Source: Candidatus Bathyarchaeum sp. (GTDB lineage Archaea > Thermoproteota > Bathyarchaeia > Bathyarchaeales > Bathyarchaeaceae). Taken from it: a stretch of DNA of 18,047 nt. Position numbers and translations under genes: made by a program. Numbering within the stretch: the stretch's first letter is position 1; every line of letters starts with the position of its first letter. Location of the stretch: positions 1 to 18,047 of the forward strand of contig JAOZIF010000112.1 in assembly GCA_026014495.1 (NCBI GenBank), written 5' to 3'. Positions 1-18,047 of the stretch are shown here, in pieces. A model generated the notes under the pieces. The model worked only from the letters and a program-made list of their open reading frames with translations, did no database searches and was not told the origin of the DNA.

Positions 1-19
1 GTTTTCAACAATGTACCTC
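1..19 (-). other. Possible ribosome-binding site and start of a further gene running off the left edge
   Basis: Minus strand reads GAGGT (19-15), aca, TTG TTG AAA AC (TTG at 11-9 or 8-6). Only a few codons are visible. Confidence 0.3.
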
Positions 20-109
20 TATTAGGAGACTAATATGCCGCACAGAAATGTGAATTAACATTGGAGTGCTGTTTGGGTTTTCAGAAAGTTCAAAGCGTGT
101 TAGTCTTAG

Positions 110-937
110 TTATTTGTCAGCCCAGAATTGAGCTAATGCCTTTAGTGCGTCTTCAAACAAGTATGTTTTGGGGGTTACGTCTACTTTTAGGTCCATTTCT
201 AATAGGGTCTTAGCTGTTACAGGGCCTATTGCTACAATTGTTAGTTTTTTGTTCAATATGTTTCGTAACTTATTTTTTGAGATAAGTGGCTCCAGCATTG
301 TGAACAAGTTTTTGGCGCTTAAGGAACTACCAAAGATAATAGCGTCGATTAATCCCTGCTTCAAGTCTTTAAGGAATTTTTTGTTCAAATCTTTGTCAGT
401 TGGAAGCAACGATTCATACACGTATAATTCGTGAACAGTTGCCCCCAAGTTTGAAAGTTTGTTTGCTAAGTCAGGGGCTGCGCCGCTTGTTCTCGGAATA
501 TAAATTAAGCTGTTTGAGACGTCCCGTTGTTTTAAACACTGGATTATTCCTGTTGAACTATATTTTTCTGGAACCAAGCCCACAGTTATGTCGCTGTTAG
601 TTAGTTCTTGTGCAGTTTTTGGACCAACAGCCATTACAATTGTTCTGTTCAGATTATCTTTTAGTTGACTGCTCAGCCCTAACTTTTCAGCGCAACCAAG
701 CAAATGTCGTACTCCATTTATGCTCATGAACAAAATATAGGTGATTTGGTTGGTTTCCAGTTCATTAACAAAGTTCTTTACAGCTGACGAATCGCAGATT
801 GGTTTAATTTGTATCGAGGGTATGAAGTAGGGTTTTGCGCCATACCGTTTTATGAGGCTACCTGTCTGTTCAGCTTGGTCGTGAGGCCTTGTTATTGCAA
901 CAGTTTGCCCGTTCAGTGTGAAGGCATCTTGAACCAT
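110..937 (-). CDS. hemD: Uroporphyrinogen-III synthase
   Basis: 275 aa with HemD motifs VAITRP, FMSINGV, AVGPKTA, VYE, FGSSLSAKN and AIGPVTA. Last gene of a hemB-hemL-hemC-cobA run; overlaps cobA by 25 nt. Confidence 0.93.
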   Translation of the reverse strand: MVQDAFTLNGQTVAITRPHDQAEQTGSLIKRYGAKPYFIPSIQIKPICDSSAVKNFVNELETNQITYILFMSINGVRHLLGCAEKLGLSSQLKDNLNRTIVMAVGPKTAQELTNSDITVGLVPEKYSSTGIIQCLKQRDVSNSLIYIPRTSGAAPDLANKLSNLGATVHELYVYESLLPTDKDLNKKFLKDLKQGLIDAIIFGSSLSAKNLFTMLEPLISKNKLRNILNKKLTIVAIGPVTAKTLLEMDLKVDVTPKTYLFEDALKALAQFWADK

Positions 938-1668
938 GAAAGCTTACTTCCTAGATGTACAACATCTCCAACAACAATAACTGCTGGAGGCTTCACATTT
1001 TTCGCCTTAACTTCTTTGGCTATAGTGGCTAGCGTTCCAACCAAACTTCTTTGCTTCTCTAAGGTTCCCCATTCAATTACAGCTACAGCTAAATCAGGGC
1101 TTAAACCAGCAGCAATCAAACTATTTGCCGTGAACTCCAGTGAGCTTACACCCATCATAATAACAATTGTATCCACACAACCAGCTAACCTGCGCCAGTC
1201 TATCGGTGATTTTGCATCTGCTGCCTGATGACCAGTAACTACAGCAAAAGAGGAAGCACAATCACGATGGGTAACAGGAATACCCGCGTATGCAGGAGCA
1301 GCCATGGCTGAAGTTACTCCAGACACAACCTCAAAAGATATCTTGTTATCAGCAAGGGTTTCAGCTTCCTCTCCTCCTCTGCCAAAAACAAAAGGGTCAC
1401 CGCCCTTTAACCGGACAACTTTTTTGCCTTCACGAGCTTTTTTAACCAAAAGTTCATTGATTTTTTCTTGAGAAAGCTCATGTTTATCCGAGCTTTTTCC
1501 AACATAAATTTTCTCGGCATCTTTTGGAGCATAATCAAGAATTGAATCGGACACTAAACGGTCATAGACTACAACGTCAGCTTCTTGTAGGACCTCAACA
1601 GCCTTCAAAGTAACAAGCTTGGGGTCTCCGGGTCCAGCGCCAACAAGAAACACTTTACCATGTCCCAT
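913..1668 (-). CDS. cobA: Uroporphyrinogen-III C-methyltransferase (SUMT/CobA, CysG-A type)
   Basis: VFLVGAGPGDPKLVTLKA, VYDRLV, RLKGGDPFVFGRGGEE, GIPVTHR. Start moved from 1728 to ATG 1668 (MGHGKV..., 251 aa), which follows a GGAGG SD-like motif and overlaps the hemC stop. Confidence 0.95.
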   Translation of the reverse strand: MGHGKVFLVGAGPGDPKLVTLKAVEVLQEADVVVYDRLVSDSILDYAPKDAEKIYVGKSSDKHELSQEKINELLVKKAREGKKVVRLKGGDPFVFGRGGEEAETLADNKISFEVVSGVTSAMAAPAYAGIPVTHRDCASSFAVVTGHQAADAKSPIDWRRLAGCVDTIVIMMGVSSLEFTANSLIAAGLSPDLAVAVIEWGTLEKQRSLVGTLATIAKEVKAKNVKPPAVIVVGDVVHLGSKLSWFKMPSH

Positions 1669-2587
1669 ACTTTTCCCTCCATTCAGCCTCCAACTCTTTA
1701 GCGCCTTGCCCAAGAAGGCTCTGAGCAACTTGTCTGCCTAAATCGTTAGCATCCTCAAGTTTGCCTTCTGCTGACGAAAAGATTTTTTTCTTACCATCAA
1801 GCGAAAAAACACAACCATAAAAAGACATTTTGTCACCGCATGCACGCCCAATTGCACCAATTGGAACGCGACAACCGCCCTCAAGTGAGAGAACAAGACT
1901 TCGTTCAGCAGTTACTTCAGCGCGTGACGGAGCATGATTGATTGATTCAAGAATGTTTATCACCTTTTTGTTATCTTTTTTTGCTGCTATGGCTAGTGCT
2001 CCTTGTCCTGCAGAGGGTGCAAAAGTTTCCAGTGAGAAACGTTCTGTGATCTGATTTTCCAGTTTCATCCGATTAAGTCCAGCCTCAGCCACTATTAATG
2101 CGTCAAATTCGCCTCTTTTTATTTTCTGGATTCGGGTGTCAACGTTACCTCTTATTGGCTTGGCTTCTAAGTCAGAACGAAGATGCTTTACTTGTGCCAT
2201 TCTCCTCAAACTGCTGGTTCCGATTACTGCGCCCTTCTGCAACTTTGCCAAGGAAACTTTATCCCTTGAGATTAAAACATCGTTTGGGGAATTACGTTTT
2301 GGTATTGCAGCTATAGTTGTTTGTGACTGTTCTAGGATAGGAACGTCTTTGAGACTATGAACAGCAAAGTCTACTTCTCCTTTTTCTATTGCCAAATCAA
2401 TCTCCTTTTCGAATATGCCCTTTCTGTCCAGAGAAAAAAGAGACAAGTTTTGTTCTTTGTCACCCAACGTTTTGATTACTTTGACTTTAAAGGTCAACTC
2501 TGGATGAAGAACTTGGAGACTAGCTAAAACATTGTTTGTCTGTATCAACGAGAGTTTGCTTCCACGAGTACCGACAGTTAAAATCAT
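1655..2587 (-). CDS. hemC: Hydroxymethylbilane synthase (porphobilinogen deaminase)
   Basis: VGTRGSKLSL, GIFEKEID, AVHSLKD, GTSSLRR, IRGNVDTR and LEGGCRVPIG (cofactor Cys). ATG 2587 overlaps the hemL stop (TGATG); TTG 2590 is an alternative start. Confidence 0.96.
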   Translation of the reverse strand: MILTVGTRGSKLSLIQTNNVLASLQVLHPELTFKVKVIKTLGDKEQNLSLFSLDRKGIFEKEIDLAIEKGEVDFAVHSLKDVPILEQSQTTIAAIPKRNSPNDVLISRDKVSLAKLQKGAVIGTSSLRRMAQVKHLRSDLEAKPIRGNVDTRIQKIKRGEFDALIVAEAGLNRMKLENQITERFSLETFAPSAGQGALAIAAKKDNKKVINILESINHAPSRAEVTAERSLVLSLEGGCRVPIGAIGRACGDKMSFYGCVFSLDGKKKIFSSAEGKLEDANDLGRQVAQSLLGQGAKELEAEWREKYGTW

Positions 2588-3903
2588 CAAACAGACCTGC
2601 CTTTAGTTGACACTTTGTGTAGAGCATTGTCAAGGGCATCAACAGTGCGCTCTAGATCGTCTTTGTCGTGTGCTGTTGACAGGAAACACGTTTCAAACTG
2701 TGAAGGCGGAACAAATACGCCCTGTTTTAGGAGTTCTTGGAAGTATACAGAAAACTTTTGAGTGTCACAGGATTTCGCGCACCCATAATCAACAATTGGA
2801 GTAGATGTAAAGAAAATCTGGAACATGGAAGCGATGCTGTTCACTTGTGCTTCAATAGTATAGGATGAAACTAAGTCTACAATTACTTTCTTTAATTCGT
2901 CGCAGTTCCGTGCAAGTTTAGGATAGATTTCATTTTTGTTTTTACGCAAAGTTTGGAGAACAGCAATGCCAGTAGACACGCAAAGAGGATTGCCACTAAA
3001 GGTTCCTGCCTGATACACCTTGCCAAACGGCGACAAATGATTCATAATTTCTTTTTTGCCCCCAAATGCTGCTATTGGAAAACCTCCCCCCAGAATCTTG
3101 CCTAATGTTGTCAGGTCAGCTTCAATGTCGTAATATTCTTGTGCTCCGCCCAAGGCAAGCCTAAAGCCTGTAATGACCTCATCAAAAATAAGAAGAACCC
3201 CATATTCTTTGGTTAATTTTCTGAGCTTCTGCAAATAGTCACCATGTGGCAATATGAGACCAGCATTCCCAATCACCGGTTCAACAATCACTGCGGCAAT
3301 ATCATTGCTTTCTTGTGTGACAACGTCCTCTAGAGCCGCATAGTTGTTGTAAGGCAAAACTATAGTGTTTCGTGTAGTTTCCTCAGGGATTCCAAGAGAG
3401 TCTGGAGCCCCACATGAAGTAGCGCCTGAACCCGCTTTCACAAGAACATAATCATGCGCCCCGTGATAGCATCCCTCAAACTTGATGATTTTGTTTTTTC
3501 CAGTAAAGCCTCTAGCTAACCTTATCGCATGCATTGTTGCTTCGGTGCCCGAATTAACTAAACGCATCATCTCCATGCAAGGAAACATTTCGCTAATGTG
3601 TTCTGCAAATTTGATTTCGTTCTCTGTTGGAGCACCATACAATGTCCCGTTTTCCAGTTGTTCTCTTGCTGCATCCAATACGCCCTCAAAAGAGTGCCCC
3701 AGAATCAGGGGCCCATAACCCATGCAGTAGTCCACGTAGGAGATTCCATCTACGCTGTATAGTTTTGAGCCCCTTGCATGTTTAACAAAGAACGGGTATG
3801 GTTTAATGGCTCGGACAGGACTGTTTACTCCACTGGGCAAAATGTTCTTGGCACGCTCATAGAGACATTCGGATTTAGTTCTGTTCAAAGTTGATTTAGC
3901 CAT
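2587..3903 (-). CDS. hemL: Glutamate-1-semialdehyde 2,1-aminomutase
   Basis: SGVNSPVRA, VNSGTEATM, KFEGCYHG, LIFDEVITGFR, TLGKILGGGFP (PLP Lys), QAGTFSGNP; 438 aa. Confidence 0.97.
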   Translation of the reverse strand: MAKSTLNRTKSECLYERAKNILPSGVNSPVRAIKPYPFFVKHARGSKLYSVDGISYVDYCMGYGPLILGHSFEGVLDAAREQLENGTLYGAPTENEIKFAEHISEMFPCMEMMRLVNSGTEATMHAIRLARGFTGKNKIIKFEGCYHGAHDYVLVKAGSGATSCGAPDSLGIPEETTRNTIVLPYNNYAALEDVVTQESNDIAAVIVEPVIGNAGLILPHGDYLQKLRKLTKEYGVLLIFDEVITGFRLALGGAQEYYDIEADLTTLGKILGGGFPIAAFGGKKEIMNHLSPFGKVYQAGTFSGNPLCVSTGIAVLQTLRKNKNEIYPKLARNCDELKKVIVDLVSSYTIEAQVNSIASMFQIFFTSTPIVDYGCAKSCDTQKFSVYFQELLKQGVFVPPSQFETCFLSTAHDKDDLERTVDALDNALHKVSTKGRSV

Positions 3904-4865
3904 GATTTTACATCCTTAGCAAAATATGTTATAATAATGTCAGCACCAGCCCGTTTTATTCCACTTAACAACTCAAGCACTGCCGCCTTTTCGTCCACCC
4001 AACCCAACTTAGCAGCAGCTTTAACCATAGCATATTCTCCGCTCACACTATATGCAGCAACAGGCAAACTGAAACTCGATTTTGCAAGCTGCACTATATC
4101 CAAGTAGGGCAAAGCAGGCTTGACCATCAAAATATCTGCACCCTCGTTTACATCTAACTCCATTTCCCTTAGAGCTTCATCCGAGTTCCCATAACCCATC
4201 TGGTAACACTTTCTATCTCCAAAACTGGGTGCACAACCAGCAGCATCTCGAAATGGACCATAAAAGCAAGATGCATACTTGGCAGAATAAGCCATTATAC
4301 CCACTTGATTAAAACCAGCGTCATCCAAAGCTTCACGGATGAATCTAACCTGGCCATCCATCATACTAGAAGGGGCTACAATGTCAGCCCCAGCGTCAGC
4401 ATGACTAACAGCCATTTTCTGCAAAAACTCTAGAGTAGAATCATTCACAACTTCATTACCGTCAACGATACCACAGTGACCATGAGTTGTGTATTCACAA
4501 AGGCAAACATCAGTCATAACAACAAGTTCATTAACAAATTCTTTCTTTAGTTCACGAATTGCCTTTTGAACAATACCATTGACACAAAAGCCACTAGAGC
4601 CAGTTTCGTCCCTTTTTGAAGAAATACCAAAAAGAAGCACAGATTTTACTCCATGCTCAAGAATCTTTCTAGCCTCATCAGCTACAAAATCAAGAGGTAA
4701 TCTAAAGTATTCAGGCAACGATTTCATAGAAACGGGTGCATTCGCGTTTTCATCCACAAAAATGGGACATACCAAATTGCTCGGATGAACCCTAACATTA
4801 GTTGTTAAGTCACGTAATGCAGGTGTCCGCCGCAGCCGTCGCAGTCTAACTGATGGAAAACTCAA
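3885..4865 (-). CDS. hemB: Porphobilinogen synthase (5-aminolevulinate dehydratase), Zn-binding type
   Basis: RLRRLR, DVCLCEYTTHGHCG (three Zn cysteines), APSSMMDG, YSAKYASCFYGPFRDA, MVKPALPYLD, YSVSGEYAM. TTG start with GGAGG 8 nt upstream. Confidence 0.97.
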   Translation of the reverse strand: MSFPSVRLRRLRRTPALRDLTTNVRVHPSNLVCPIFVDENANAPVSMKSLPEYFRLPLDFVADEARKILEHGVKSVLLFGISSKRDETGSSGFCVNGIVQKAIRELKKEFVNELVVMTDVCLCEYTTHGHCGIVDGNEVVNDSTLEFLQKMAVSHADAGADIVAPSSMMDGQVRFIREALDDAGFNQVGIMAYSAKYASCFYGPFRDAAGCAPSFGDRKCYQMGYGNSDEALREMELDVNEGADILMVKPALPYLDIVQLAKSSFSLPVAAYSVSGEYAMVKAAAKLGWVDEKAAVLELLSGIKRAGADIIITYFAKDVKSWLNQL

Positions 4866-4868
4866 AAG

Positions 4869-5546
4869 TTATGCCTCCGAAAGAGCCTGATTTTTTTCTT
4901 TGAAGCTTTCTGCAATGTCCAAGGCAAACTGTTTAGCAGCTTCAAACTTGCTTTGTTTCAAAAGTTTCTTTATGTGATTGTCGTCAAGTATTTCAGACAG
5001 AACAATTTTTCTGATTTTCTGCTCTGAGATTTGTTGCTTCAGAAGAGGCCGAATGCAATCTTGTAATCTGATTTGAAGCAAATCCTCAGGGGTAACCATT
5101 TTTTCTATTCTTTGCCTCAAAACTCTAGCCATAGAAGGACTTTTTCCACTAGTTGACACTGCAATATTCACATCACCTACTTTAGCTAAGGCTGGAAACA
5201 TGAAATCGCTTATTTCAGGATTATCAACACAATAAACTAAGCATCCCGCATCTTTAGCGTGTTTAACTAAACGAAAGTTAAGGTCGCTATCGTTAGTTAC
5301 TGCAACAAGTATGTCAGGGCTGTTACCAAGACTGTTAACAAAATCAGGTATATCCTTGATGTCAGTTTGAAGTAAATCGATTTTTTGCAGTTGATTTAAC
5401 GTATGAATGTCAAGCAGAAACTTTTTGCTTGCGACCAAAATTTTTGAGCCTGCATCCAGAAAACTCAGAATTTTTCTGTACGCTTCTGACCCGCCCCCAA
5501 CAATAACAACATATTTTCCGTTAAGATTGAAGTCTAAAATCAACAT
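4869..5546 (-). CDS. sirC: Precorrin-2 dehydrogenase, possibly also sirohydrochlorin ferrochelatase (SirC/Met8/CysG N-terminal family)
   Basis: Rossmann motif VVIVGGGSEAYRK, then VDNPEISDFMFPA and AVSTSGKSP. 225 aa with no fused methyltransferase domain. ATG with GGAG SD. Confidence 0.88.
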   Translation of the reverse strand: MLILDFNLNGKYVVIVGGGSEAYRKILSFLDAGSKILVASKKFLLDIHTLNQLQKIDLLQTDIKDIPDFVNSLGNSPDILVAVTNDSDLNFRLVKHAKDAGCLVYCVDNPEISDFMFPALAKVGDVNIAVSTSGKSPSMARVLRQRIEKMVTPEDLLQIRLQDCIRPLLKQQISEQKIRKIVLSEILDDNHIKKLLKQSKFEAAKQFALDIAESFKEKNQALSEA

Positions 5547-7102
5547 TCAGACGCTCCTTTAGGTATATCCAAAACACAGCCATTACCGAGTAGCAGCTTA
5601 AAGCGCTCCAGAACTGTTCCACAATCAATCGAAGAGCGTACAGGAGATTCAGCAAGACGCATCAACAAATCCAAATTCAATGACTGCTCCACAGTTGCGA
5701 GTACTTTGGCTCCGAACTCGTCATACCTTATCTCAATTTCAGGAATGGCTCCTCGTCCCTCTAAATTTATACGGGGCAATATTCCAAGTAACCCGACGCC
5801 AAGATTTCGAAAAGCAGATTTAAGGGAGTGCTTGATTTCGGGAGTAATGTAGCTTGTGCGAAACTTGTTTAATATTACCCCCACTACGTTGATTCCAAGA
5901 GCTTTCATGAAATTAACATAATTTAAGCCAGTTATCACTGCACCTTCGATACCCGTCTTGTCGCAGGCAACTACAAGAACTGTGGGAACACCTAGAACTG
6001 CCGCTATCTCCGCGGTTGAGGCAGGACGCTCTACAGTTTCGTTAAGAAATCCAGTGAAAGGCCCCATTGCTCCTTCTATTAAAAGAAAATCATAGTTCTT
6101 GCTTGCAGTGTCTACTGCATCTATTGGGGACGCCCAGCCACTGTTTCCTACTTTTATTGACGAATAACTGTTGATTGGCTCCTTGACCAAATACAAAGCA
6201 GGCACAATGTCACGTATGTCGCCACCTACTTTTAGCAACCCAACTTTGAATCCCCGCTTCTTCAATGCTCCAGCAACGCCAGTGACTATGAAAGTTTTAC
6301 CTGACCCGCTTCCAGTTGCGGTAGTAAACAAAAGCACTGGAGTTGCCGCCTGTTGGGACGAATTAAGTTCTGACTGAACACCTGTTGATATGCCAACTTC
6401 ACGCTTCAGTTTGAGTAATAACCGTGAATTAGCATTCTTGATTTCTTGAAGTTCTTGATTTGAGATATCCAAAGACTTCATGACGCTCTGGATTATGACT
6501 GGGTTTTCCTCAAGCAATCCATGACTTAAGATTCCAACTACATTGCCCTCGTTATTAGTAAATCCAGAAACAAAATCCTGAGGGTCATCACGATAATTAA
6601 CACGTTTTATGTGCGAAACCAGAATAGGTCTTGCTTTGGTGTATGAAGTAATCTTGCCGTAGGTGTGACAGTGAAAACCTGTAACCGTTTTCCCAAGCGA
6701 ATCAGTCATGAAGCTTTTTCCAACAACCGTAGCTGAAACACTGTCTGTACATATCAATGGCTCAAACTCCACATCTAACAGACCAAGCCCTCTGTGCGTA
6801 ATGGGAACAGAAGATAAACGTCCAACATCAGTTGCTTTGGCTAGCACCTGAAAACCTGAACAAATCCCAAGCACAAACTTGTCAACATCAGCCATCCGTG
6901 TTATCTCCTTTTTTATGTTGTCAGTTATGCTCTGGGACTCCACAAGGCTACCACCTGGAATTATTAGTAAATCAAGGATTTCGGAAGCAGGTTTACCATC
7001 TACTAGTCCGTCTTCTCGGATTATGTCAGTTGGTAAGCTTCCGAAGCTTTCAAAAAAGGGCAATGCCCCTGGAACGTAAATCAATCCGATTCGATGTCGC
7101 AA
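5540..7102 (-). CDS. CobB/CobQ-family glutamine amidotransferase with inverted domain order (N-terminal glutaminase, C-terminal CobB/CbiA-like ATP-dependent synthetase); candidate tetrapyrrole a,c-diamide synthase
   Basis: N-terminal part: DLLIIPGG, GIC81SGFQ, GLGLLDV, GFHCH, NVVGILSH194G. C-terminal part: P-loop GSGSGKT (aa 264-270), LKVGGD, LIEGAMGPFTG, STAEIAAVLGVP, GVILNK. TTG start at 7102. Family is well supported; substrate is not known. Confidence 0.8.
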   Translation of the reverse strand: MRHRIGLIYVPGALPFFESFGSLPTDIIREDGLVDGKPASEILDLLIIPGGSLVESQSITDNIKKEITRMADVDKFVLGICSGFQVLAKATDVGRLSSVPITHRGLGLLDVEFEPLICTDSVSATVVGKSFMTDSLGKTVTGFHCHTYGKITSYTKARPILVSHIKRVNYRDDPQDFVSGFTNNEGNVVGILSHGLLEENPVIIQSVMKSLDISNQELQEIKNANSRLLLKLKREVGISTGVQSELNSSQQAATPVLLFTTATGSGSGKTFIVTGVAGALKKRGFKVGLLKVGGDIRDIVPALYLVKEPINSYSSIKVGNSGWASPIDAVDTASKNYDFLLIEGAMGPFTGFLNETVERPASTAEIAAVLGVPTVLVVACDKTGIEGAVITGLNYVNFMKALGINVVGVILNKFRTSYITPEIKHSLKSAFRNLGVGLLGILPRINLEGRGAIPEIEIRYDEFGAKVLATVEQSLNLDLLMRLAESPVRSSIDCGTVLERFKLLLGNGCVLDIPKGASEC

Positions 7103-7122
7103 GTTTATCCCCTGCTTCTTAG

Positions 7123-7152
7123 CGCAAAAATATGCGAACTCTTATATTTAAG
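7123..7152. promoter_or_regulatory. Putative divergent archaeal promoter (BRE/TATA) with an adjacent palindrome
   Basis: CTTATATTTAAG (7141-7152) reads TATA-like on both strands. GCGAACT (7134-7140) is BRE-like for the + direction. CGCA-N6-TGCG lies at 7123-7136. This is the only gap between divergent starts at 7102 and 7172. Confidence 0.55.
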
Positions 7153-7171
7153 TTGGAGGGATTATCCATCC

Positions 7172-8446
7172 ATGCAGGCCTCTGCTAACAACGCCAACAT
7201 CATAAACGTGAGGATTACACACCAAAAATCACAGGTTTCACTAATTGAAACTGTAGCCTTTGAAAACATCAAAACTTCACTTGCCGAGCTTTGCTCAAGC
7301 ACCAATGTTGACGAGTGCATCATACTCCAAACATGCAACCGTACCGAACTTTACGTAGTTACTAAAAACAAAGGCACATCCCAGATGATTATAGACTACA
7401 TAATAAAAAAATGTGGAACCAAATCTAAAGAAGCAAGCAAAGCAATTGAAACGTCAACAAATCAAGATGCCCTTAAACATCTCCTACGAGTAGCGTCTGG
7501 ATTAGAATCAATGGTAATAGGTGAAGACCAAATTCTAGGTCAAGTTTGGGGCGCATATTCAACAGCAGAATCAGCAAACACTGTTGGTCCAATACTTAAA
7601 ACCGTATTTACACGAGCAGTAAGTGTTGGAAGACACGTAAGAAACAAAACCGAAGTTAACAGAGGCTCAGTATCTATTGGTTCAGTTGCAGTTGAGCTTG
7701 CAGAGACGCTTTTAGGAAACCTAGAAGGCAAGAACGTTCTGGTGATGGGTGCAGGGGAAACAGGAACCATTGTGGCAAAAGCACTAGCAAGATGCTGCCC
7801 AAATGCAATATTTATTGCCAACAGAACTTACGAGCGAGCAGTAAAGTTGGCTGATGAACTACAAGGAAAAGCTGTAAGGTTTGACATGTTAGAAGAGGTG
7901 CTTAAAGACACTGACGTTGTTATTTGCTCTACGGCTGCGCCTCATTATTTGCTAAAAAAAGAGTCGGTCTGCCGAATTATGAAGCAACGCAACAAGTTAA
8001 CGGGTTTAATGATTATTGACATCTCAAACCCGCGAAATGTCGAAGAGTCTGTGCAACAAATAGATGAGGTTACGCTCTACAACATAGATGATTTGCGAGT
8101 AATCGCGGAGAAAAACAAAGAGAAACGGCAACAAAAGGCAGAAAAAGCCTCAAAAATTATTGATGAAGCCCTGATTTTGCTTGAACAAGACTTGAAAGCA
8201 CAGTCTGTAAGCAACATAGTTTCGTCCTTGTTTTCGCACGCTGAGAAAATCAGACAAAAAGAGCTGACCAAAGCAAACAACATGCTAGGAAAGCTTGATG
8301 AAAAAAAGAGGGGCGTTATTGACGATTTGACTTTCGAGATAGTTGAACAAACTTTGGTGCCTATTGTTGAAAATCTGCGTAAGGCAGCTAAGACCAACGA
8401 TAAGGAAATGGTAGATGTTGCAGTGAAACTGCTTGAAGTAAAATAA
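7172..8446 (+). CDS. hemA: Glutamyl-tRNA reductase
   Basis: ILQTCNRTELY (catalytic Cys), SGLESMVIGEDQILGQV, MGAGETG (NADPH binding), IDISNPRNVE. Start moved from 7094 (overlaps the divergent gene) to ATG 7172, downstream of GGAGG at 7155-7159; 424 aa. Confidence 0.96.
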   Translation: MQASANNANIINVRITHQKSQVSLIETVAFENIKTSLAELCSSTNVDECIILQTCNRTELYVVTKNKGTSQMIIDYIIKKCGTKSKEASKAIETSTNQDALKHLLRVASGLESMVIGEDQILGQVWGAYSTAESANTVGPILKTVFTRAVSVGRHVRNKTEVNRGSVSIGSVAVELAETLLGNLEGKNVLVMGAGETGTIVAKALARCCPNAIFIANRTYERAVKLADELQGKAVRFDMLEEVLKDTDVVICSTAAPHYLLKKESVCRIMKQRNKLTGLMIIDISNPRNVEESVQQIDEVTLYNIDDLRVIAEKNKEKRQQKAEKASKIIDEALILLEQDLKAQSVSNIVSSLFSHAEKIRQKELTKANNMLGKLDEKKRGVIDDLTFEIVEQTLVPIVENLRKAAKTNDKEMVDVAVKLLEVK

Positions 8447-8462
8447 TGTAACCAAAAATGGA

Positions 8463-9530
8463 GTGAAAAGATTGAGTAAAACATGTTTGATTATTATTGG
8501 GCACGGAAGTAAGCTTCCACATAATAAGGAAACCATGGAAAAACTGGCAGACCAAATAAGACGGCGGTCAAGCTTTGACAAGGTAGAAACCGCGTTTATG
8601 GTGAGAAATAAGCCATCAATTCCAGAAGCAATAGAGAACGCAGTCAAAAAGGGAGCTACTAAGATTGTGTTGGTTCCTACATTCATAGCTCATGGGGTAC
8701 ACACAACAGATGAAATTCCTGAGATACTAAAAACAAAGCAGAAAGAGTTGGGGTTAAAGGCTCAGGGAGTAAAAATAATATACGGGGAACCACTGGGACC
8801 AGATGAACGAATAGCAAAAATAGTTGAAGAAAAAGCGCTGAAGCTTCTAGGTCAACAAAGCAGTGAAATAAAAAAAGTTCAGGAAGCCCGCAATCTAACG
8901 GCTTCGATAAACATGTACAAAACCAGTATAACAATAATAAGACCGCTCATAGCCGACACGCTAGAAAAAGCGCCCAAGACACATGCACCGATAATCGAAC
9001 GCGTTGTTCACACTACAGCTGACCCCGAATATGCAAAACTGGTTGTAATCGATAAACATGCAGTTGAAGCGGGGGTAGCAGCCATCAAAGCTGGAGCAAA
9101 AGTCATTGCAGATGTTAAGATGGTTAAAGTGGGCATAAATGAGGCACGAATCAAAAGGTTTAGGGGACAGATTTTAAGTTATGTCGATGATGAACGGGCA
9201 GTTAAACTGGCCAAACAAGAATCGATAACAAGGTCTGCAGCTGCCATGCGGTTAGCCATAAAAGACGGTATAGACAACTCAATTATAGCCATAGGAAATG
9301 CGCCCACCGCAGCATTTGAAATAGCAAAAGCTGTGAGACAAGGGTTAGCCAAGCCAGCTCTTATCATAGCTACTCCTGTAGGATATGTAGGCGCCGCAGA
9401 CTCAAAAAAAGAAGTTGCAAGCCTGCCTATACCTTACGTAATAATTCGAGGACCTAAAGGTGGAAGTGCACTAGCAGTTGCAGTTTTTAACGCCTTGCTT
9501 GGCATAGCAGAAAAAGATTTGGGAATTTAA
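8463..9530 (+). CDS. cbiX-cbiC: Fusion of short sirohydrochlorin (cobalto)chelatase CbiX(S)/CfbA-like domain and cobalt-precorrin-8 methylmutase CbiC
   Basis: aa ~1-129: IIGHGSKLP, AFM, PSIPE, VPTFIAHGVHTTDEIP, YGEPLGPD. aa ~147-355: RVVHTTAD, ADVKMVKVGI, IGNAPTA, ATPVGYVGAADSK, RGPKGGS. Single uninterrupted frame. Start is GTG 8463 or TTG 8472 (the latter follows GGAGTG). Confidence 0.9.
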   Translation: MKRLSKTCLIIIGHGSKLPHNKETMEKLADQIRRRSSFDKVETAFMVRNKPSIPEAIENAVKKGATKIVLVPTFIAHGVHTTDEIPEILKTKQKELGLKAQGVKIIYGEPLGPDERIAKIVEEKALKLLGQQSSEIKKVQEARNLTASINMYKTSITIIRPLIADTLEKAPKTHAPIIERVVHTTADPEYAKLVVIDKHAVEAGVAAIKAGAKVIADVKMVKVGINEARIKRFRGQILSYVDDERAVKLAKQESITRSAAAMRLAIKDGIDNSIIAIGNAPTAAFEIAKAVRQGLAKPALIIATPVGYVGAADSKKEVASLPIPYVIIRGPKGGSALAVAVFNALLGIAEKDLGI

Positions 9531-9547
9531 AATTACAGTGGCTTATC

Positions 9548-10633
9548 ATGCGAAGAGTCTTAAAATATGGAAACACGACGGGTGCATACGCTACAGCTGC
9601 AGCAAAAGCAGCCCTAATTACTTTGCTTGATAAGCCAGTTGACAGAGTAGGAATACCCAGCCCGTTAGGCATCCGTTTTGAGATACTAATTAAAGAATGC
9701 AAGAAACTCAGCGACGACACCGCAATAGCATACGCATTAAAGAATGCTGGAGAAGACATAGATGTCACAGATAAGATGGAAATTTTCGCCACAGTAAAGC
9801 TAACTGATGATGGAAAGATCAGCATAGCTGGTGGTAAGGGCGTTGGCACGGTAACAAAACAAGGCTTACCTGTTGCTGTAGGTGAAGCAGCAATCAATCC
9901 TACTCCAAGAAAGATGATAAAAGAGGCAATCAAAGAGGTTTTGCCTTCAGGTAAAGGCGTTAAAATAACAATAAGTGCTCCCGAGGGCGAAGAAGTTGCC
10001 AAGAAAACCCAAAACAGCAAGCTAGGCATAGTTGGGGGCGTATCCATTCTGGGTACAACAGGTGTAGTCAGACCATTATCGATTAAGTCATACAGGCGCT
10101 CGTTGGTTCCTCAACTTGACGTCGCCCTTGCCCAAAATTATGAACAGATTTTTTTGGTTCCGGGAAACATAGGGGAAAAGCTGGCTAAAAAAATATTCAA
10201 CATTCCTGAAGACAGCATAGTTCAAACAGGCGACTTCATGGGTTACATGCTACAGAAGGCAGTTGAAAAAGGGGCAAAAAACATAGCTATTTTTGGTCAT
10301 CCCGGAAAACTTGTGAAGTTGGCAGCGGGAATCTTCAATACTCATCATAAGATGGGTGATGCCCGAATGGAAATCATAGCCGCTTATGCGGGAGCTGCGG
10401 GTGCAGACACAAAACTCATACAAAAAATAGTGAACTCAAACACAACTGAAGAGGCAATACAGTTTCTTGAACCAGCCAAACTGATTCAACAAACATTTAA
10501 CCCGATTGCAGAGCAGGTGTATGTACGTTCATTAGAGAAAATAGGCAATAAAGCCAAGATTAACGTGATTATAGTATCCATGAATGGAACTGTTCTGGGA
10601 ACAAGTAAGAATGTTAGGAGTTTTGTGAATTGA
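9548..10633 (+). CDS. cbiD: Cobalt-precorrin-5B (C1)-methyltransferase
   Basis: TTGAYATAAAKAA, GGKGVG.VT..GL, AAINPTPR, LGIVGGVSILGTTGVVRP, GHPGKLVKLAAGIFNTH; 361 aa. Confidence 0.93.
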   Translation: MRRVLKYGNTTGAYATAAAKAALITLLDKPVDRVGIPSPLGIRFEILIKECKKLSDDTAIAYALKNAGEDIDVTDKMEIFATVKLTDDGKISIAGGKGVGTVTKQGLPVAVGEAAINPTPRKMIKEAIKEVLPSGKGVKITISAPEGEEVAKKTQNSKLGIVGGVSILGTTGVVRPLSIKSYRRSLVPQLDVALAQNYEQIFLVPGNIGEKLAKKIFNIPEDSIVQTGDFMGYMLQKAVEKGAKNIAIFGHPGKLVKLAAGIFNTHHKMGDARMEIIAAYAGAAGADTKLIQKIVNSNTTEEAIQFLEPAKLIQQTFNPIAEQVYVRSLEKIGNKAKINVIIVSMNGTVLGTSKNVRSFVN

Positions 10634-11298
10634 GCAAACTTAAGATAGTTGGTATGGGTCCAGGCTCTCCAGATTACATCACTGATATCGCAAAACAGAG
10701 CGTACAAAACGCAGAAATTGTGATAGGTGCAAAAAAAGCTCTAAAGTTGTTTCAAGATTTCATACACTGCGAATCATTAGCCTTAACAGCTCAGAACATA
10801 ATTGAGGGACTAAAATATGGAGTTGCATCTGCGGCAGCAGGCAAAGAAGTAGTAATACTTTCAACTGGAGACCCCGGTTTCTCGGGTCTTTTAGGTTCAT
10901 TGCTTAAAGTTGCTGGAAAAGATGTTGACTTCGATGTTATTCCGAACGTAAGCTCAATTCAAATTTGTGCTGCACGTCTTCGGATGCGCTGGGATACTGC
11001 AACTTTGATTAGTTTTCATGCTGACGCAAGCAATGAGAAGAAGATGAAACTAGTCGAGGCAACAAAAAGTGGAAATATAGTTATTCTTCTTCCAGACCCC
11101 CAATCGTTTTCTCCAAGTGATGTCGCAAGGTTTCTTATTGAAAACGGAATAGACAAAAAAACTGCTGTTAGTGTGTGCGAGAATTTGACGCTGACGAATG
11201 AGAAAGTGGTTACATCTACTTTGGCGGGGATTTTGGAGCAGGAATTTGGCGTTTTGTGTGTGATGGTTGTAGGAGAGAAAAATACAAAAGTAAAATGA
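10630..11298 (+). CDS. cbiE: Cobalt-precorrin-7 (C5)-methyltransferase
   Basis: IVGMGPGSPDYIT, LSTGDPGFSG, IPNVSSIQICAARL, VCENLT..NEK. TTG start overlaps the cbiD stop (TTGA). Confidence 0.9.
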   Translation: MSKLKIVGMGPGSPDYITDIAKQSVQNAEIVIGAKKALKLFQDFIHCESLALTAQNIIEGLKYGVASAAAGKEVVILSTGDPGFSGLLGSLLKVAGKDVDFDVIPNVSSIQICAARLRMRWDTATLISFHADASNEKKMKLVEATKSGNIVILLPDPQSFSPSDVARFLIENGIDKKTAVSVCENLTLTNEKVVTSTLAGILEQEFGVLCVMVVGEKNTKVK

Positions 11299-11308
11299 GG
11301 CGTTTGAT

Positions 11309-11923
11309 GTGTGGTCGTATAGAACTGCCGGAATTCCGGATGCAGATTTTGTTCAAAGCGATAAGGTTCCTGGGCCTACAAAAGAGGAGATACGTGTAGT
11401 CACTATTTCTAAGGCTCGGCTTTGTGAGGGCTCTTACGTAATTGATGTTGGATGTGGCACTGGCGGTTTAACGGTTGAGGCAGCTCTTCAGGTAACACAG
11501 AAGGGCAGAGTCTTTGCATTAGATGATAATGCAGAAGCAATTAGATTAACCAAAAGTAACGTGACAAAATTTCAGGTTCAAAACATAGTTGAGACTATCT
11601 TCGGAAAAGCTCCTGACACAATGTTACAGTTACCCAAAATAGACGCAGTCATCATAGGCGGCAGTGCATCATTACCAAAAGTAATACAAACAGCTTACCA
11701 TAAGCTGAAAAATGATGGAAGGCTAGTCGTTAATGCAATACTTTTGGAGACAGCAGTTAAGGCGCTAGATGAAATAAAGAAGCTGAACTTCAAGGATTTG
11801 GATGTTGCCCAGATTTTTGTAGCTAAAGGGCGACAATTACCCTCAGGAACAATGATGCTAGCAAGAAATCCAATCACAATAATATCGGCTACAAAAACAG
11901 AGGTAAAAAAAGTTGCAAGGTAA
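11309..11923 (+). CDS. cbiT: Cobalt-precorrin-6B (C15)-methyltransferase (decarboxylating)
   Basis: GIPDADF, PGPTKEEIRVVTISKARL, DVGCGTGGLTVEAA, GRLVVNAILLET, MMLARNPITII. GTG start with GAGG 8 nt upstream. Confidence 0.93.
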   Translation: MWSYRTAGIPDADFVQSDKVPGPTKEEIRVVTISKARLCEGSYVIDVGCGTGGLTVEAALQVTQKGRVFALDDNAEAIRLTKSNVTKFQVQNIVETIFGKAPDTMLQLPKIDAVIIGGSASLPKVIQTAYHKLKNDGRLVVNAILLETAVKALDEIKKLNFKDLDVAQIFVAKGRQLPSGTMMLARNPITIISATKTEVKKVAR

Positions 11924-12647
11924 ACTTGTTGGAGTTGGTGTTGGTCCCGGTGACCCGGAACTCATCACTGTAAAGGCTGTAAAAATGTTGAAGACTGCTG
12001 ATGTGATAAGCATTCCAAAAGCTCACGAGAACAAGCCCAGCCTTGCTCTTGCCATAGTCAAACAAATTCTAAAGGGCAGAGAAAACATTCCTGAATTGCT
12101 TGAACTGGTTTTTCCAATGACCAAAGACAAAAGCGAGCTTAAAAGGTCATGGAGCCAAAATGCGCAAATCATTGCTGAAAAAGCCAAAACAGGCAAAACA
12201 ATTGCATTCATCACGTTGGGCGACCCCATGTTCTATAGCACATTCATTTATCTTTGCCAAAGAATGAAAGAAGAGCACCCAGAAGTCAACTTGGAAATAA
12301 TACCCGGCGTAACATCGTTAACTGCTTGTGCCGCAGTTTCCAAGATACCACTTGCAGAAAAAAATGAAGTTGTTACAATTATTACGTCAGGTATTGAGTC
12401 AGACAAGATTGGCGAGATTGCCAAACACGCAAGCAGTATTGTGTTACTGAAGGGTTCTAAACGGCTAAAAGAGTTTGTTCCAGTTTTGGAGAAATCTGGT
12501 TTCACAAAGAACTCGACAATTGCTTTAGTTCGGAGATGCACAATGTCAGAAGAGAAGGCACTTGTTGGGACATTAAAGGATGTGAAAAAATGGGACATTG
12601 ATGATGATTACTTTTCGATTTCGATTATAAAGGAGAAAACAAAATGA
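11913..12647 (+). CDS. cbiL: Cobalt-factor II / precorrin-2 C20-methyltransferase
   Basis: LVGVGVGPGDPELITVKAV, LVFPMTKD, FITLGDPMFYST, IPGVTS, DDDYFS. TTG start with GAGGT SD. Confidence 0.92.
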   Translation: MQGKLVGVGVGPGDPELITVKAVKMLKTADVISIPKAHENKPSLALAIVKQILKGRENIPELLELVFPMTKDKSELKRSWSQNAQIIAEKAKTGKTIAFITLGDPMFYSTFIYLCQRMKEEHPEVNLEIIPGVTSLTACAAVSKIPLAEKNEVVTIITSGIESDKIGEIAKHASSIVLLKGSKRLKEFVPVLEKSGFTKNSTIALVRRCTMSEEKALVGTLKDVKKWDIDDDYFSISIIKEKTK

Positions 12648-13417
12648 AGGAAATTGTTTTTATCGGCGCAGGTCCAGGCGACCCTGAACTAATAACTCTC
12701 AAAGGAAAAAAGAACCTCGAAAAAGCAGATGTAGTCATCTATGCGGGCTCTTTGCTAAATCCGCAGATACTCAAATATGCGAAACCTCATGCTAAGCTCT
12801 ACGACAGCGCAGCCATGAACTTAAAAGAGGTTCTTCAGGTGATGGTTGATTCAGTTAATGAGGGAAAGTTTGTTGCTAGAGTGCATGATGGTGACCCCAG
12901 CTTTTTTGGTGCCATAACTGAGCAGATGGATTTTTTGGAAAAACAGGGTATACCATTTACGGTGATTCCTGGGGTGAGTTGCCTTCAAGGAGGTGCAGCA
13001 GCATTGAGAAGAGAGTTAACGTTGCCTAGCATTTCGCAGAGCGTTATAATAACTAGACCTGAAGGTAGGACTCCTGTTCCAGAGCCTGAGAGGATTAGAG
13101 AGTTGGCGAAGCATGGAACAACTATGGTTATTTTCTTGGGGATTCAGCATGTAGAAAAGGTTATTGAAGAGCTTAAGATGAGTGGTCGTTCCAAAGACAC
13201 GCCAGTTTCGGTTGTGTACAAAGCCACATGGAAGGAGCAAAAAATAGTTAGAGGCACCTTAGAAGATATAGTTGGGAAGGTCAAGGACGCTGGGATAACA
13301 AGGACAGCTCTGATATTTGTTGGAGAAGTATTGAATCCCAAAGCCTACGATTTTTCGAAACTGTATGACCCCAAGTTTACTCATGGCTACCGTAAAGGCG
13401 AAAACGATGTTTCCTAG
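12644..13417 (+). CDS. cbiF: Cobalt-precorrin-4 C11-methyltransferase
   Basis: FIGAGPGDPELITLKG, YAGSLLN, RVHDGDPS, ELTLPSISQSVIITR, GRTPVPE, VVYKATW, SKLYDPKFTHGYR. ATGA overlap with cbiL. Confidence 0.96.
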   Translation: MKEIVFIGAGPGDPELITLKGKKNLEKADVVIYAGSLLNPQILKYAKPHAKLYDSAAMNLKEVLQVMVDSVNEGKFVARVHDGDPSFFGAITEQMDFLEKQGIPFTVIPGVSCLQGGAAALRRELTLPSISQSVIITRPEGRTPVPEPERIRELAKHGTTMVIFLGIQHVEKVIEELKMSGRSKDTPVSVVYKATWKEQKIVRGTLEDIVGKVKDAGITRTALIFVGEVLNPKAYDFSKLYDPKFTHGYRKGENDVS

Positions 13418-14492
13418 AGGCGTAACAATTTTCGCCATTACTCGACAAGGGGTTAAAACGGCAGCCAAAATCAAGGATGTTCTAACCAAGAACAACATAA
13501 ATTGTACAATACGTGCACCCAGAAAATACGCCCAAAAAGGCGTTATTCCGCTAGAAAAGAAGCTGGGAGACGCAGTAAGGGAAGCCTTCAGTTATGTTGA
13601 TGCAATAGTTGCAGTTATGGCTACAGGAATTATCGTGAGGACAATTGCTCCATTACTGAAAAGTAAAATGAGTGACCCCGCTGTTGTGTGTGTTGACGTT
13701 TCTGGAAGATTTGCAATCAGTTTAGTATCAGGACATTTGGGTGGAGCCAACAAGCTAACAAAAATTATTGCTCAGGGCTTGGAGGCAGTACCTGTCATCA
13801 CTACAGCTTCGGACGTGTTAGGCAAGCAGAGCGTTGACGAGCTAGCCACAGAGTTACACTGCACTGTAATAAATCCTCAAAGTTTAGTCGCCGTTAACTC
13901 TGCAATAGTAAACGAACAAGAGTTGGTGCTGGTTTTATCTGGAACAGCAAAAATTTCACTGAATAAAATCAGCAGCTATAAGGTCAAAACTGCCGAGAAC
14001 ATAAAACATGCGATAGAGATTGTGAACAGCTTTGATGCAGGCGTCATAATCACAAACGAAGAAAACTTGGTGGACGAACTTAGTAAGCCAGCTACAATCC
14101 TGAAGCCAAAGACAATAACGGTTGGTATGGGTTCACGAAAAAAAGTAAGTGTAGAAGATATTGTTGAAACAGTAAGTTCTGCGTTGTCAAAAGCAAACAT
14201 TACAGTAGAACGAGTTGACCGCTTGGCTACGGTTGACATAAAAAAGGATTCATTAAGCATGCTAAACGCAGCCAAAAAACTAGGATTAAATCTTGAATTT
14301 ATCAGCATCAAGGAGCTTGGCTCTTTTAGGCACAAGGACCTTTCCGCTGATTCACAGGTAGTTAAAGAAAAAATTGGAGTTGGAGGAGTATGCGAGCAAG
14401 CAGCGCTAATAGTTGCAGGAAAAAATCCGAAATTAATAATGAAGAAAATGAAATCAAAAGGCGTGACAGTGGCAATAGCATCGGGCGAATAG
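13407..14492 (+). CDS. cbiG: Cobalt-precorrin-5A hydrolase
   Basis: MATGIIVRTIAPLL, DPAVVCVD, SLVSGHLGGANKL, VITTASD, VGMGSRK, GVGGVCEQAA, GVTVAIA. Start moved from 13365 to ATG 13407 (MFPRG..., 361 aa), overlapping the cbiF end. Confidence 0.93.
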   Translation: MFPRGVTIFAITRQGVKTAAKIKDVLTKNNINCTIRAPRKYAQKGVIPLEKKLGDAVREAFSYVDAIVAVMATGIIVRTIAPLLKSKMSDPAVVCVDVSGRFAISLVSGHLGGANKLTKIIAQGLEAVPVITTASDVLGKQSVDELATELHCTVINPQSLVAVNSAIVNEQELVLVLSGTAKISLNKISSYKVKTAENIKHAIEIVNSFDAGVIITNEENLVDELSKPATILKPKTITVGMGSRKKVSVEDIVETVSSALSKANITVERVDRLATVDIKKDSLSMLNAAKKLGLNLEFISIKELGSFRHKDLSADSQVVKEKIGVGGVCEQAALIVAGKNPKLIMKKMKSKGVTVAIASGE

Positions 14493-15220
14493 CCGTAGTC
14501 GGCATTGGACCTGGTGCTCTTGAGCACATGACTCTCAAAGCCAAACAGGAAATAGAACAAGCTGAAGTTATCATAGGCTACAAGACATACGTGAAGCTAA
14601 TCCAGAAAATCATCAAAAAAGATGTTGAAGTGTTCAGTGGCAATATGGGACAAGAGGTCGACAGAGCCAAAAAGGCAATACAGGAGGCATTAGAAAACAA
14701 GCAAGTTGTGGTTATTAGTAGCGGCGATTCTGGAGTTTATGGCATGGCAGGCGTTGTCTTGGAGGCTGCTGCACGCCAAAAAGTAAAGGTTCCAATAGAA
14801 GTTGTTCCGGGCGTAACAGCGGCTACTGCAGCTGCGGCAACATTAGGAGCGCCGTTAGTGGGAGATTTTGCTGTTATAAGTTTGAGTGATATTTTGACGC
14901 CGTGGAGTTTGATTGAAAGGCGACTGAGAGCTGCTGCTGAATCAGATTTTGGAATTGTATTGTATAACCCTCAAAGTAAGGGACGAAAAAAGCCGTTAGC
15001 CCAAGCCCACAAGATATTACTAGAATATCGTGACCCAAAAACGCATGTAGGCATAGTTAAGAATGCAAAAAGGCAGGGCGAAAAAGCCACATTTACTTCA
15101 CTAAAAAATATGCTAAACTTTGAAATAGACATGACAACGGTACTGGTTATAGGAAATTCGAAAACATACAAGGTTAATGGTAGTCTGGTTACTCCGAGAG
15201 GCTACAACTTCAAAGAATAA
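14390..15220 (+). CDS. cbiH: Cobalt-factor III / precorrin-3B C17-methyltransferase (start uncertain; homology begins near 14483)
   Basis: AVVGIGPG, IGYKTYV, MGQEVDRA, VISSGDSGVYGMAG, PGVTAA, DFAVISLSDILTPW, VLYNPQS, DMTTVLVIGNS, VTPRGY. The only upstream in-frame canonical start is ATG 14390, 103 nt inside cbiG. Confidence 0.9.
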   Translation: MRASSANSCRKKSEINNEENEIKRRDSGNSIGRIAVVGIGPGALEHMTLKAKQEIEQAEVIIGYKTYVKLIQKIIKKDVEVFSGNMGQEVDRAKKAIQEALENKQVVVISSGDSGVYGMAGVVLEAAARQKVKVPIEVVPGVTAATAAAATLGAPLVGDFAVISLSDILTPWSLIERRLRAAAESDFGIVLYNPQSKGRKKPLAQAHKILLEYRDPKTHVGIVKNAKRQGEKATFTSLKNMLNFEIDMTTVLVIGNSKTYKVNGSLVTPRGYNFKE

Positions 15221-15240
15221 AAAAAGATTTGGTTTTTGTC
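15218..15240. terminator. Putative bidirectional T-rich terminator between convergent cbiH and ABC-2 permease
   Basis: 20-nt gap AAAAAGATTTGGTTTTTGTC gives a T-tract on each strand downstream of each stop, consistent with archaeal oligo-T termination. Confidence 0.4.
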
Positions 15241-15987
15241 TTACACACTAGAGCGTTTTAAAGCCACCATAGACATTACAAAAAAGAATACCCCAAAGGC
15301 TAGAAGAACAAATATATAAATCCAAGGGAAAGACTGCTCCAAAGTTATTGCACGCAGAGATTCGCTTGAATGGGTTAGAGGTAAAAAGTACAAAACAATT
15401 TTCAGGGCTTCAGGAATTTGGCTTAACGAAAAGAAGGTTCCGCTAAGAAAAGTCATTGGTAACAACACTAAGCTGCTTACGGTGCTCATGTCTTGATGTG
15501 ATTTTGCCAGAAAAGAAACAAGTACTCCAAAAAAGGAGAAAACAAAGCATGACAGAACAAGTACAGCTACGAAAGCTATGTCTATGTTCAGTGAGGGTGA
15601 AAGGGCAAATCCTACTAGCATAAACACAATAGACGTGAATAAACCGCGTACTACCCCAATTAGGGCTTTTCCGATAATTATTGAATATACACTAACTGGG
15701 GACATTAAGCATTCGTCAAATGATTTGAAGAATAGGCGGTCCACGTTTAGTTTTTGTCCAGCACCACTAAAGCTGACGGTCATGGATGTTAAAGCGATTA
15801 TGCCGGGGATAACAAATTCAAGGTAGCTGTAGCCGTCAAAGCTGATTCCTTGTCCTAATCCAAAGCCGAAAGCTACAAGGTACAAAAGAGGATTCACAAG
15901 GCTAGTAGACAAAGTTCGAATCCACTGGCGCCTAAGAACTCTTAGGTCTACCCACAAGACAGAGTAAATATCGTTTAGCAGGTTCAC
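15241..15987 (-). CDS. ABC-2 type (exporter class, NodJ/DrrB-like) transporter permease
   Basis: About six hydrophobic segments, with SLVNPLLYLVAFGFGLG, YLEFVIPGIIA, PMTFLSGTFF and LPLTH. GTG 15987 is preferred (GAGGG upstream, just after the ATPase stop); the ORF track uses GTG 16002. Confidence 0.88.
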   Translation of the reverse strand: MNLLNDIYSVLWVDLRVLRRQWIRTLSTSLVNPLLYLVAFGFGLGQGISFDGYSYLEFVIPGIIALTSMTVSFSGAGQKLNVDRLFFKSFDECLMSPVSVYSIIIGKALIGVVRGLFTSIVFMLVGFALSPSLNIDIAFVAVLVLSCFVFSFFGVLVSFLAKSHQDMSTVSSLVLLPMTFLSGTFFSLSQIPEALKIVLYFLPLTHSSESLRAITLEQSFPWIYIFVLLAFGVFFFVMSMVALKRSSV

Positions 15988-15991
15988 TGTT

Positions 15992-17637: not shown

Positions 17638-17670
17638 CAAGTTGCTGTGCTCCTTCAAGTAAACTCTCAA

Positions 17671-17701
17671 ATTTAATAAAATGTGGTGTCATTTCCATTT
17701 T
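17671..17701 (-). promoter_or_regulatory. Possible internal promoter/operator upstream of cbiZ
   Basis: Minus-strand TTTTATTAAA (17681-17672) lies about 35 nt before the cbiZ start, next to inverted repeat AAATG-N6-CATTT (17679-17694). Confidence 0.3.
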
Positions 17702-17710
17702 TGGGCATGT

Positions 17711-18046
17711 TCAGTATTTTGCCATAAGTTTTGGCGGAAGTATATTTTCGGCACTATTAGTTTCTGATTCTAGAGGCGTAATCTGAGGAATACCAAGAAC
17801 AGATTTTGTCACCTTCGATTTAATTCCGTAAACAGCTTCTATGTTTTCTTCAGTCAACACTGAATCTGGAGTCCCAGCGGCAAAGATGGCCCCTTTTTCG
17901 AGCAGCATCAGCCTGTCAGAGAATCTGCTTGCCAAGTTTAAATCATGTATTGAAATAATTACTGAGCAGTGTTTGCTCTGGGCTAAAGTCTTAAGGATAC
18001 ATAAGATTTCTAGTTGGTGTCTAATGTCTAGGGAACTTGTTGGTTC
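17711..18046 (-). CDS. btuD: Cobalamin/Fe-siderophore ABC importer ATP-binding subunit (BtuD/FecE-like), C-terminal part; 5' end outside window
   Basis: The frame is open to the window edge: EPTSSLDIRHQLEIL...ISIHDLNLASRFSDRLMLL..G..FAAGTPDSVLTEENIEAVYG. B12 specificity is inferred only from adjacency to cbiZ. Confidence 0.78.
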   Translation of the reverse strand, partial: EPTSSLDIRHQLEILCILKTLAQSKHCSVIISIHDLNLASRFSDRLMLLEKGAIFAAGTPDSVLTEENIEAVYGIKSKVTKSVLGIPQITPLESETNSAENILPPKLMAKY

Positions 18047-18047
18047 G

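Follow-up and report, generated by a model that had tools for sequence, protein, structure and literature searches.

A circularly permuted CobB/CobQ-type amidotransferase as a candidate corrin amidase of Bathyarchaeia

Bathyarchaeia are among the most abundant archaea of sediments and depend on corrinoid methyltransferases, and the marker genes by which cobamide producers are usually recognised include cbiA and cbiP. Among the closest described systems to the one considered here are the glutamine amidotransferases CbiA/CobB (TIGR00379), of which CfbB and DsrN are offshoots, and CbiP/CobQ (TIGR00313); cobyric acid, the product of the complete set of amidations, is consumed by the steps assigned to cobD and cbiB. 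Genome papers have reported 'deficiencies' or 'missing steps' in the B12 pathway of Bathyarchaeia (PMC10477458, PMC11697101). Here we describe a gene from an 18,047-nucleotide stretch of Candidatus Bathyarchaeum sp. (contig JAOZIF010000112.1, positions 1 to 18,047; hereafter the window) that encodes a member of the CobB/CobQ superfamily in which the two domains stand in reversed order. As argued below, this permuted enzyme very probably belongs to the cobamide pathway, in which its most likely role is the CbiA step that yields the a,c-diamide.

Pfam models place GATase_3 at residues 41-200 and AAA_26/CbiA at residues 259-445 of a single chain, the glutaminase-first, synthetase-second order that an earlier note on this DNA had read from the translation, whereas the models of CobB and CobQ have the opposite order (synthetase at about positions 5-226, glutaminase at about 287-442). 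The motifs quoted in that note were all recovered at the positions given there: Cys81 lies in GICSGFQ (codon 6862-6860) and His194 in GILSHG (codon 6523-6521), the P-loop GSGSGKT is encoded at 6313-6293, and LKVGGD, EGAMG, STAEIA and GVILNK are also present in the translation. In the synthetase half KVGGDIRD stands where CobB has KVGPDYID, and the glutaminase domain includes a CobQ-like helical tail (residues 201-232). Homologues share the start point of the protein (MRHRIGL...). The residues invariant among 51 aligned family members are C81, G268-K269-T270, K291, D298, P301, Y304, E343-G344 and N412, while H194, D295 and R297 are conserved in at least 90% of the sequences. An AlphaFold2 model built with the family alignment is a single compact chain (mean predicted local distance difference test score (pLDDT) 91.8, predicted template modelling score (pTM) 0.92), and more than 1000 full-length homologues were found; a fusion or assembly artefact was rejected on these two grounds, and the open reading frame (ORF) encodes a genuine enzyme of two domains instead of being mis-joined. 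Neither sequence searches nor Foldseek searches of the PDB found a CobB/CobQ structure, the matches being to single-domain PurQ, GatD, HisH and BioD.

The permuted gene belongs to an already catalogued, uncharacterised family. Its product scores 495.8 bits against NF004921/PRK06278 (cut-off 354), with residues 4-486 aligning to positions 2-460 of the 482 in the profile, and falls below threshold for TIGR00379 (CobB/CbiA; 61.9 bits against a cut-off of 261.4, from the synthetase half only), TIGR00313 (CobQ/CbiP; 63.3 against 309.9, mainly from the glutaminase) and NF033195 (CfbB, the Ni-sirohydrochlorin a,c-diamide synthase; 52.1 against 560). The enzyme had been presented as non-canonical. The inverted domain order bears this out, but the protein is not unrecorded, as it lies far above the cut-off of the NF004921/PRK06278 model and has been assigned to K02224 and COG1492. 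The names given by the databases conflict, and include CbiA, CobQ or cobyric acid synthase (COG1492/JGI), K02224 (KEGG) and AAA family ATPase. NCBI and KEGG label the protein a cobyrinate a,c-diamide synthase; the a,c-diamide activity in the name of NF004921/PRK06278 is a homology-based guess. Full-length members form about eleven clusters at 50% identity, and those outside Bathyarchaeia include Hydrothermarchaeales, Methanobacteriales, Methanococcales and Vulcanisaeta/Thermoproteota. The family occurs throughout Methanococcales and Methanobacteriales, in agreement with the statement in the earlier note that some methanogens possess glutaminase-first proteins, and its member in Methanocaldococcus jannaschii is MJ0138, which is uncharacterised in Swiss-Prot. 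No comparative description of the permuted family was found in the literature searched, the search on cobyric acid in Bathyarchaeota found nothing on the permuted protein, and one on MJ1421 gave unrelated matches only.

The affinities of the two halves of the protein differ. Among the NCBIfam models, the N-terminal half best matches CobQ positions 287-442 and the C-terminal half CobB (PRK01077) positions 5-226. Each domain was also placed in a separate tree with canonical CobB and CobQ proteins from genomes in which the curated models exceed their cut-offs; for alignment only, the synthetase half of the permuted proteins was moved ahead of the glutaminase half. In the synthetase tree the permuted sequences form a clade (Shimodaira-Hasegawa approximate likelihood-ratio test (SH-aLRT) 97) whose sister clade contains all CobB-type sequences (97), and CobQ is on a long branch. 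In the glutaminase tree the permuted sequences (98) and CobQ (97) together make up one clade (99, branch length 1.48) separate from the CobB glutaminases, and each of the two occupies one side of a branch. A CobQ-like glutaminase joined to a CobB-like synthetase, as the earlier note had described the protein, is therefore what both the domain matches and the trees indicate. Neither domain nests within a characterised family, and the two do not fall together inside one. We regard the permuted family as a third lineage of the CobB/CobQ superfamily, distinguished by circular permutation. With only three groups in the trees, an old recombination would fit the pattern, and the retention of ancestral features, coupled with divergence of the CobQ synthetase and the CobB glutaminase, would fit it equally well.

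In a phylum sample of 301 Thermoproteota genomes, each at least 90% complete, the 16 cbiD-positive Bathyarchaeia are exactly the 16 that carry the permuted gene. CobQ is found in none of these 16, and canonical CobB in two (G005 and G016). In the metagenome-assembled genome (MAG) from which the window derives, the cobB and cobQ models match the permuted gene only; the earlier remark that this is the only amidating enzyme of its cluster is true of the MAG as a whole, which contains no canonical cbiA or cbiP elsewhere. The same models match only the permuted gene in five further genomes of Bathyarchaeia, three of which are single chromosomes (including the Bathy-6 cMAG CP170178.1). Pfam searches of five genomes with GATase_3 and AAA_26 detected neither another protein combining GATase_3 with a dethiobiotin-synthetase (DTBS)-like domain nor a split CobQ of the kind present in Nitrosopumilaceae, and cbiB (in two copies) and cobS were found in all five genomes tested. 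The permuted gene occurs without cbiD in five members of the genus Ca. Bathyarchaeum, including G013 (96% complete) and G020 (95%), and in G020 it adjoins genes for a cobD-like aminotransferase and cbiB.

What the sequence data show is the domain architecture, the retention of catalytic residues, the family to which the protein belongs, the affinities of its domains, its phyletic distribution and its gene neighbourhood; from these a substrate, a number of amidated sites and an order of amidation may be predicted. On sequence grounds we propose, with a probability of roughly 0.45, that the permuted protein is the corrinoid glutamine amidotransferase of Bathyarchaeia, which would fill the role of CbiA and most likely also carry out the four later amidations. 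This would agree with the non-canonical cobyrinate amidotransferase put forward in the earlier note. That one circularly permuted enzyme performs all six corrin amidations in Bathyarchaeia, replacing both CbiA and CbiP, is offered more tentatively. The six-fold role is suggested because these genomes contain no CobQ/CbiP or other enzyme of the superfamily and yet possess CbiB and CobS; it is favoured because closed genomes contain no superfamily member but this protein, because its glutaminase is of the CobQ type and because its gene has been retained beside cobD-cbiB in relatives that lack the ring genes. By analogy with the families to which its domains are related, the N-terminal CobQ-type glutaminase (Cys81/His194) would free ammonia from glutamine, and the C-terminal CobB-type P-loop domain (GKT 268-270, K291, D295/D298, E343) would activate carboxylates on the side chains of cobyrinic acid at the expense of ATP, for their subsequent amidation. 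The a,c-diamide would be formed first, in the role of CbiA, and amidation at b, d, e and g by the same protein would give cobyric acid without CobQ/CbiP. Possibly, the permuted enzyme is an ancestral form of the superfamily with broad specificity.

The canonical CobB of some Bathyarchaeum genomes is also present in cbiD-negative genomes and lies in a radical-SAM/methyltransferase cluster, and is therefore not tied to ring synthesis. In the locus L014 (G005:C1:438500-458400), and equally in L015 (G016), this conserved cluster holds HemN-like, B12-binding and SPASM radical SAM proteins, two methyltransferases and an aldo-keto reductase bearing Fe-S domains, with the second cbiB some 5 kb away, and it looks like a separate tetrapyrrole/corrinoid modification pathway. 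The syntenic contigs of the window's MAG carry neither CobB nor the methyltransferase next to it. This MAG has two cbiB paralogues (C59:15840-16727 and C129:10534-11469), a state that in the phylum sample is nearly confined to the Bathyarchaeia order. The second cbiB was considered as a clue to a CbiP substitute and rejected, since it is also found in members of the order that lack both cbiD and the permuted gene.

Outside Bathyarchaeia the family occurs together with the canonical enzymes. M. jannaschii has matches of the permuted, cobB and cobQ types, and in Thermoproteaceae cbiD is restricted to genomes with a distant permuted homologue (G141, G177 and G304), all of which carry canonical CobQ and one canonical CobB. 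Canonical CobB lies 1 kb from dsrAB in G304 and 12-13 kb from it in G141 and G182, which suggests that this CobB is a DsrN-like sirohaem amidase; the permuted enzyme is thus left as the candidate a,c-diamide synthase of these organisms. A CbiA role of the family in M. jannaschii and the Vulcanisaeta-like genomes fits its coexistence there with canonical CobQ, and agrees with the CobB-like character of the synthetase domain. Other arrangements were seen elsewhere in the phylum. Closed genomes of lineage f26 (for example, G087, G108 and G159) contain a cbiD-like gene and no CobQ; G087 and G108 have no CobB, and G159 has two nearly identical copies of it. In all 50 sampled genomes of family f19, which are small, mostly closed and cbiD-positive and are taken to be ammonia-oxidising thaumarchaea, the CobQ synthetase domain is a separate ORF of about 290 amino acids beside cbiB, so that cobyric acid synthase is split (for example, G041:C1:1369131-1369838).

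It could be argued that the permuted enzyme is equivalent to CbiA only and that the b, d, e and g amidations of Bathyarchaeia fall to an enzyme that is not homologous to CobQ. Such a CbiP substitute is the main rival to the sole-amidase proposal and a real possibility, although the proposal is slightly favoured over it. The synthetase is CobB-like, keeps G-x-D-x-x-D and has no CobQ insert, all of which would suit a CbiA equivalent, as would the position beside dsrAB of the only canonical CobB of G304. Several further points weigh against a single enzyme for all sites. M. jannaschii and Vulcanisaeta-like genomes carry canonical CobQ alongside the permuted family, which indicates that this family is not generally sufficient for six amidations. 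The lineages f26 and f43 of the phylum sample have cbiD, with canonical CobB or none, and no CobQ, and the archaeal CbiP substitute that this would imply is conceivable. CbiJ/CobK (TIGR00715) was not matched in the window's own MAG (G000) or in G005, G040, G287 and G314, so that undetected pathway enzymes are not unusual in the lineage and holes in the pathway do occur here; the model is, however, insensitive, matching only 2 of 14 control genomes, so that the lack of a match is weak evidence of a missing cobalt-precorrin-6A reductase. The window's MAG is 93% complete and in 196 contigs, and no biochemical or genetic report on any member of the family was found in the literature (PRK06278, MJ0138). 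Against a CbiP substitute, the five genomes searched with the Pfam models offer no candidate for it, be it another GATase_3/DTBS-like protein or a split CobQ, the cobQ and cobB models match nothing else in the closed chromosomes, and the retention of the permuted gene beside cobD-cbiB in genomes without the ring genes is hard to explain if the enzyme acts only at the a,c stage.

Two other assignments appear much less probable. The name used by JGI/COG would make the protein a cobyric acid synthase, with the role of CbiP/CobQ only and with a,c amidation left to another enzyme. The CobQ-type glutaminase and C-terminal tail, the cobD-cbiB neighbours of the gene in G020, and the presence of canonical CobB without CobQ in G005 and G016 are consistent with this. 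It is unlikely, however, as canonical CobB is absent from 14 of the 16 cbiD-positive Bathyarchaeia and that of Bathyarchaeum has no link to ring synthesis, while other archaea possess canonical CobQ in addition to the permuted family and the permuted synthetase domain is not CobQ-like. Least probable of all is that the enzyme, as CfbB or DsrN does, amidates a tetrapyrrole other than a corrin, for example (metallo)sirohydrochlorin or siroheme, and so serves another cofactor, as the earlier note had considered. The gene is indeed translationally coupled to sirC and heads the hem/sirohydrochlorin operon, and homologues of CobB have been co-opted for the synthesis of F430 and of sirohaem amide, according to literature cited in PMC7617358. 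Against this idea stand the one-to-one co-occurrence of the gene with cbiD in the sampled Bathyarchaeia and its cobD-cbiB neighbours where ring genes are missing; the CfbB model, moreover, scores far below its cut-off, and the corrin pathway would be left without any amidase.

Homologues and related loci assign the window to the genus Ca. Bathyarchaeum, to which Ca. B. tardum M17C-01, with the closed genome G005, also belongs, and a search for related loci with the family alignment returned Bathyarchaeia only. The permuted gene stands at the head of a tightly packed run of genes on the same strand (110..5546, minus strand), and its stop overlaps the start of sirC (5540-5546). On the opposite strand the cbiX(S)-cbiC fusion is followed by cbiD, cbiE, cbiT, cbiL, cbiF, cbiG and cbiH (Table 1). 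The layout of a hem run with divergent cbi genes is conserved in G005 and in G040, which belongs to a different family.

Table 1. Positions of the permuted gene, its domains and the neighbouring features in the window
Feature	Position	Strand	Basis or remark
Permuted CobB/CobQ-superfamily glutamine amidotransferase, NF004921/PRK06278 family	5540..7102	-	ORF and translation: TTG start, 520 aa
CobQ-type class-I glutaminase domain, N-terminal, residues ~1-235	6398..7102	-	Pfam GATase_3
CobB-type dethiobiotin-synthetase-like ATPase/synthetase domain, C-terminal, residues ~256-490	5633..6337	-	Pfam AAA_26/CbiA
sirC	4869-5546	-	NCBIfam
hemB	3885-4865	-	NCBIfam
hemL	2587-3903	-	NCBIfam
hemC	1655-2590	-	NCBIfam
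Uroporphyrinogen-III C-methyltransferase (SUMT)	913-1728	-	NCBIfam
hemD	110-937	-	NCBIfam
Divergent intergenic region, permuted gene/hemA	7103..7171		69 bp
Divergent hemA and anaerobic corrin-ring genes	7172..15220	+	NCBIfam
cbiX(S)-cbiC fusion	8463-9530	+	NCBIfam

About 40 nucleotides 5' of the TTG start of the permuted gene lies the A/T-rich TTAAATATAAG, which may be a promoter element of this gene. A long hemA ORF (from 7094) would overlap the start of the permuted gene by 9 nucleotides. The hemA hidden Markov model matches this long ORF from residue 37 onwards, and the conserved N-terminus comes after M27, so that hemA probably starts at the ATG at 7172 rather than at 7094. In G005 (L010:10977-13526) the hemA frame runs for about 850 amino acids, enough to take in cbiX-cbiC, which is a separate ORF in the window, and would be a triple fusion or else a frame error. 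Two short contigs of the window's MAG, C162 (1573 bp) and C33, carry cbiX-cbiC with cbiD and SUMT with hemC, respectively, at 72-79% amino acid identity to the copies in the window, and are probably fragments of the hem/cbi cluster of a co-binned relative and not a second cluster. The gene context of the family in Vulcanisaeta-like and methanogen genomes was uninformative on function; at two Methanobacteriales loci (L096:8297-9667 and L102:5043-6422) the permuted gene is immediately preceded by a gatA-like gene of the Amidase family.

If the permuted enzyme covers the CbiA step, and possibly that of CbiP, Bathyarchaeia would be complete de novo producers of cobamides that marker-based surveys under-count. 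A function would also be assigned to a widespread archaeal family with contradictory names, to which MJ0138 and related proteins of Methanococcales and Methanobacteriales belong, and the protein would be a natural domain permutation of mixed CobB/CobQ character, useful for the study of site selectivity in multi-site corrin amidation. The hypothesis that it is the sole corrin amidase is directly testable.

With respect to known systems, the protein of the window is a member of NF004921/PRK06278, with the glutaminase-first order, the invariant Cys, the P-loop and the acidic residues of that family and no structural difference from it. In common with CbiP/CobQ its glutaminase has LIIPGG, GICSGFQ, GLGLLDV, an H-G after the catalytic His and the helical tail; in contrast to CbiP/CobQ the domains are reversed, and the synthetase has neither the CobQ insert nor the QNMSLNS motif. 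CbiA/CobB differs from the permuted protein in its domain order and in the type of its glutaminase, and the permuted synthetase forms a clade of its own outside all sampled CobB. The synthetase nevertheless shares with CbiA/CobB the P-loop, K-x-G-x-D-x-x-D, E-G-x-M-G and R-G-x-I-P-E, together with the absence of the CobQ insert of about 40 residues, and by analogy the expected chemistry of the permuted protein would, as in CbiA/CobB, be the glutamine- and ATP-dependent amidation of a tetrapyrrole at multiple sites.

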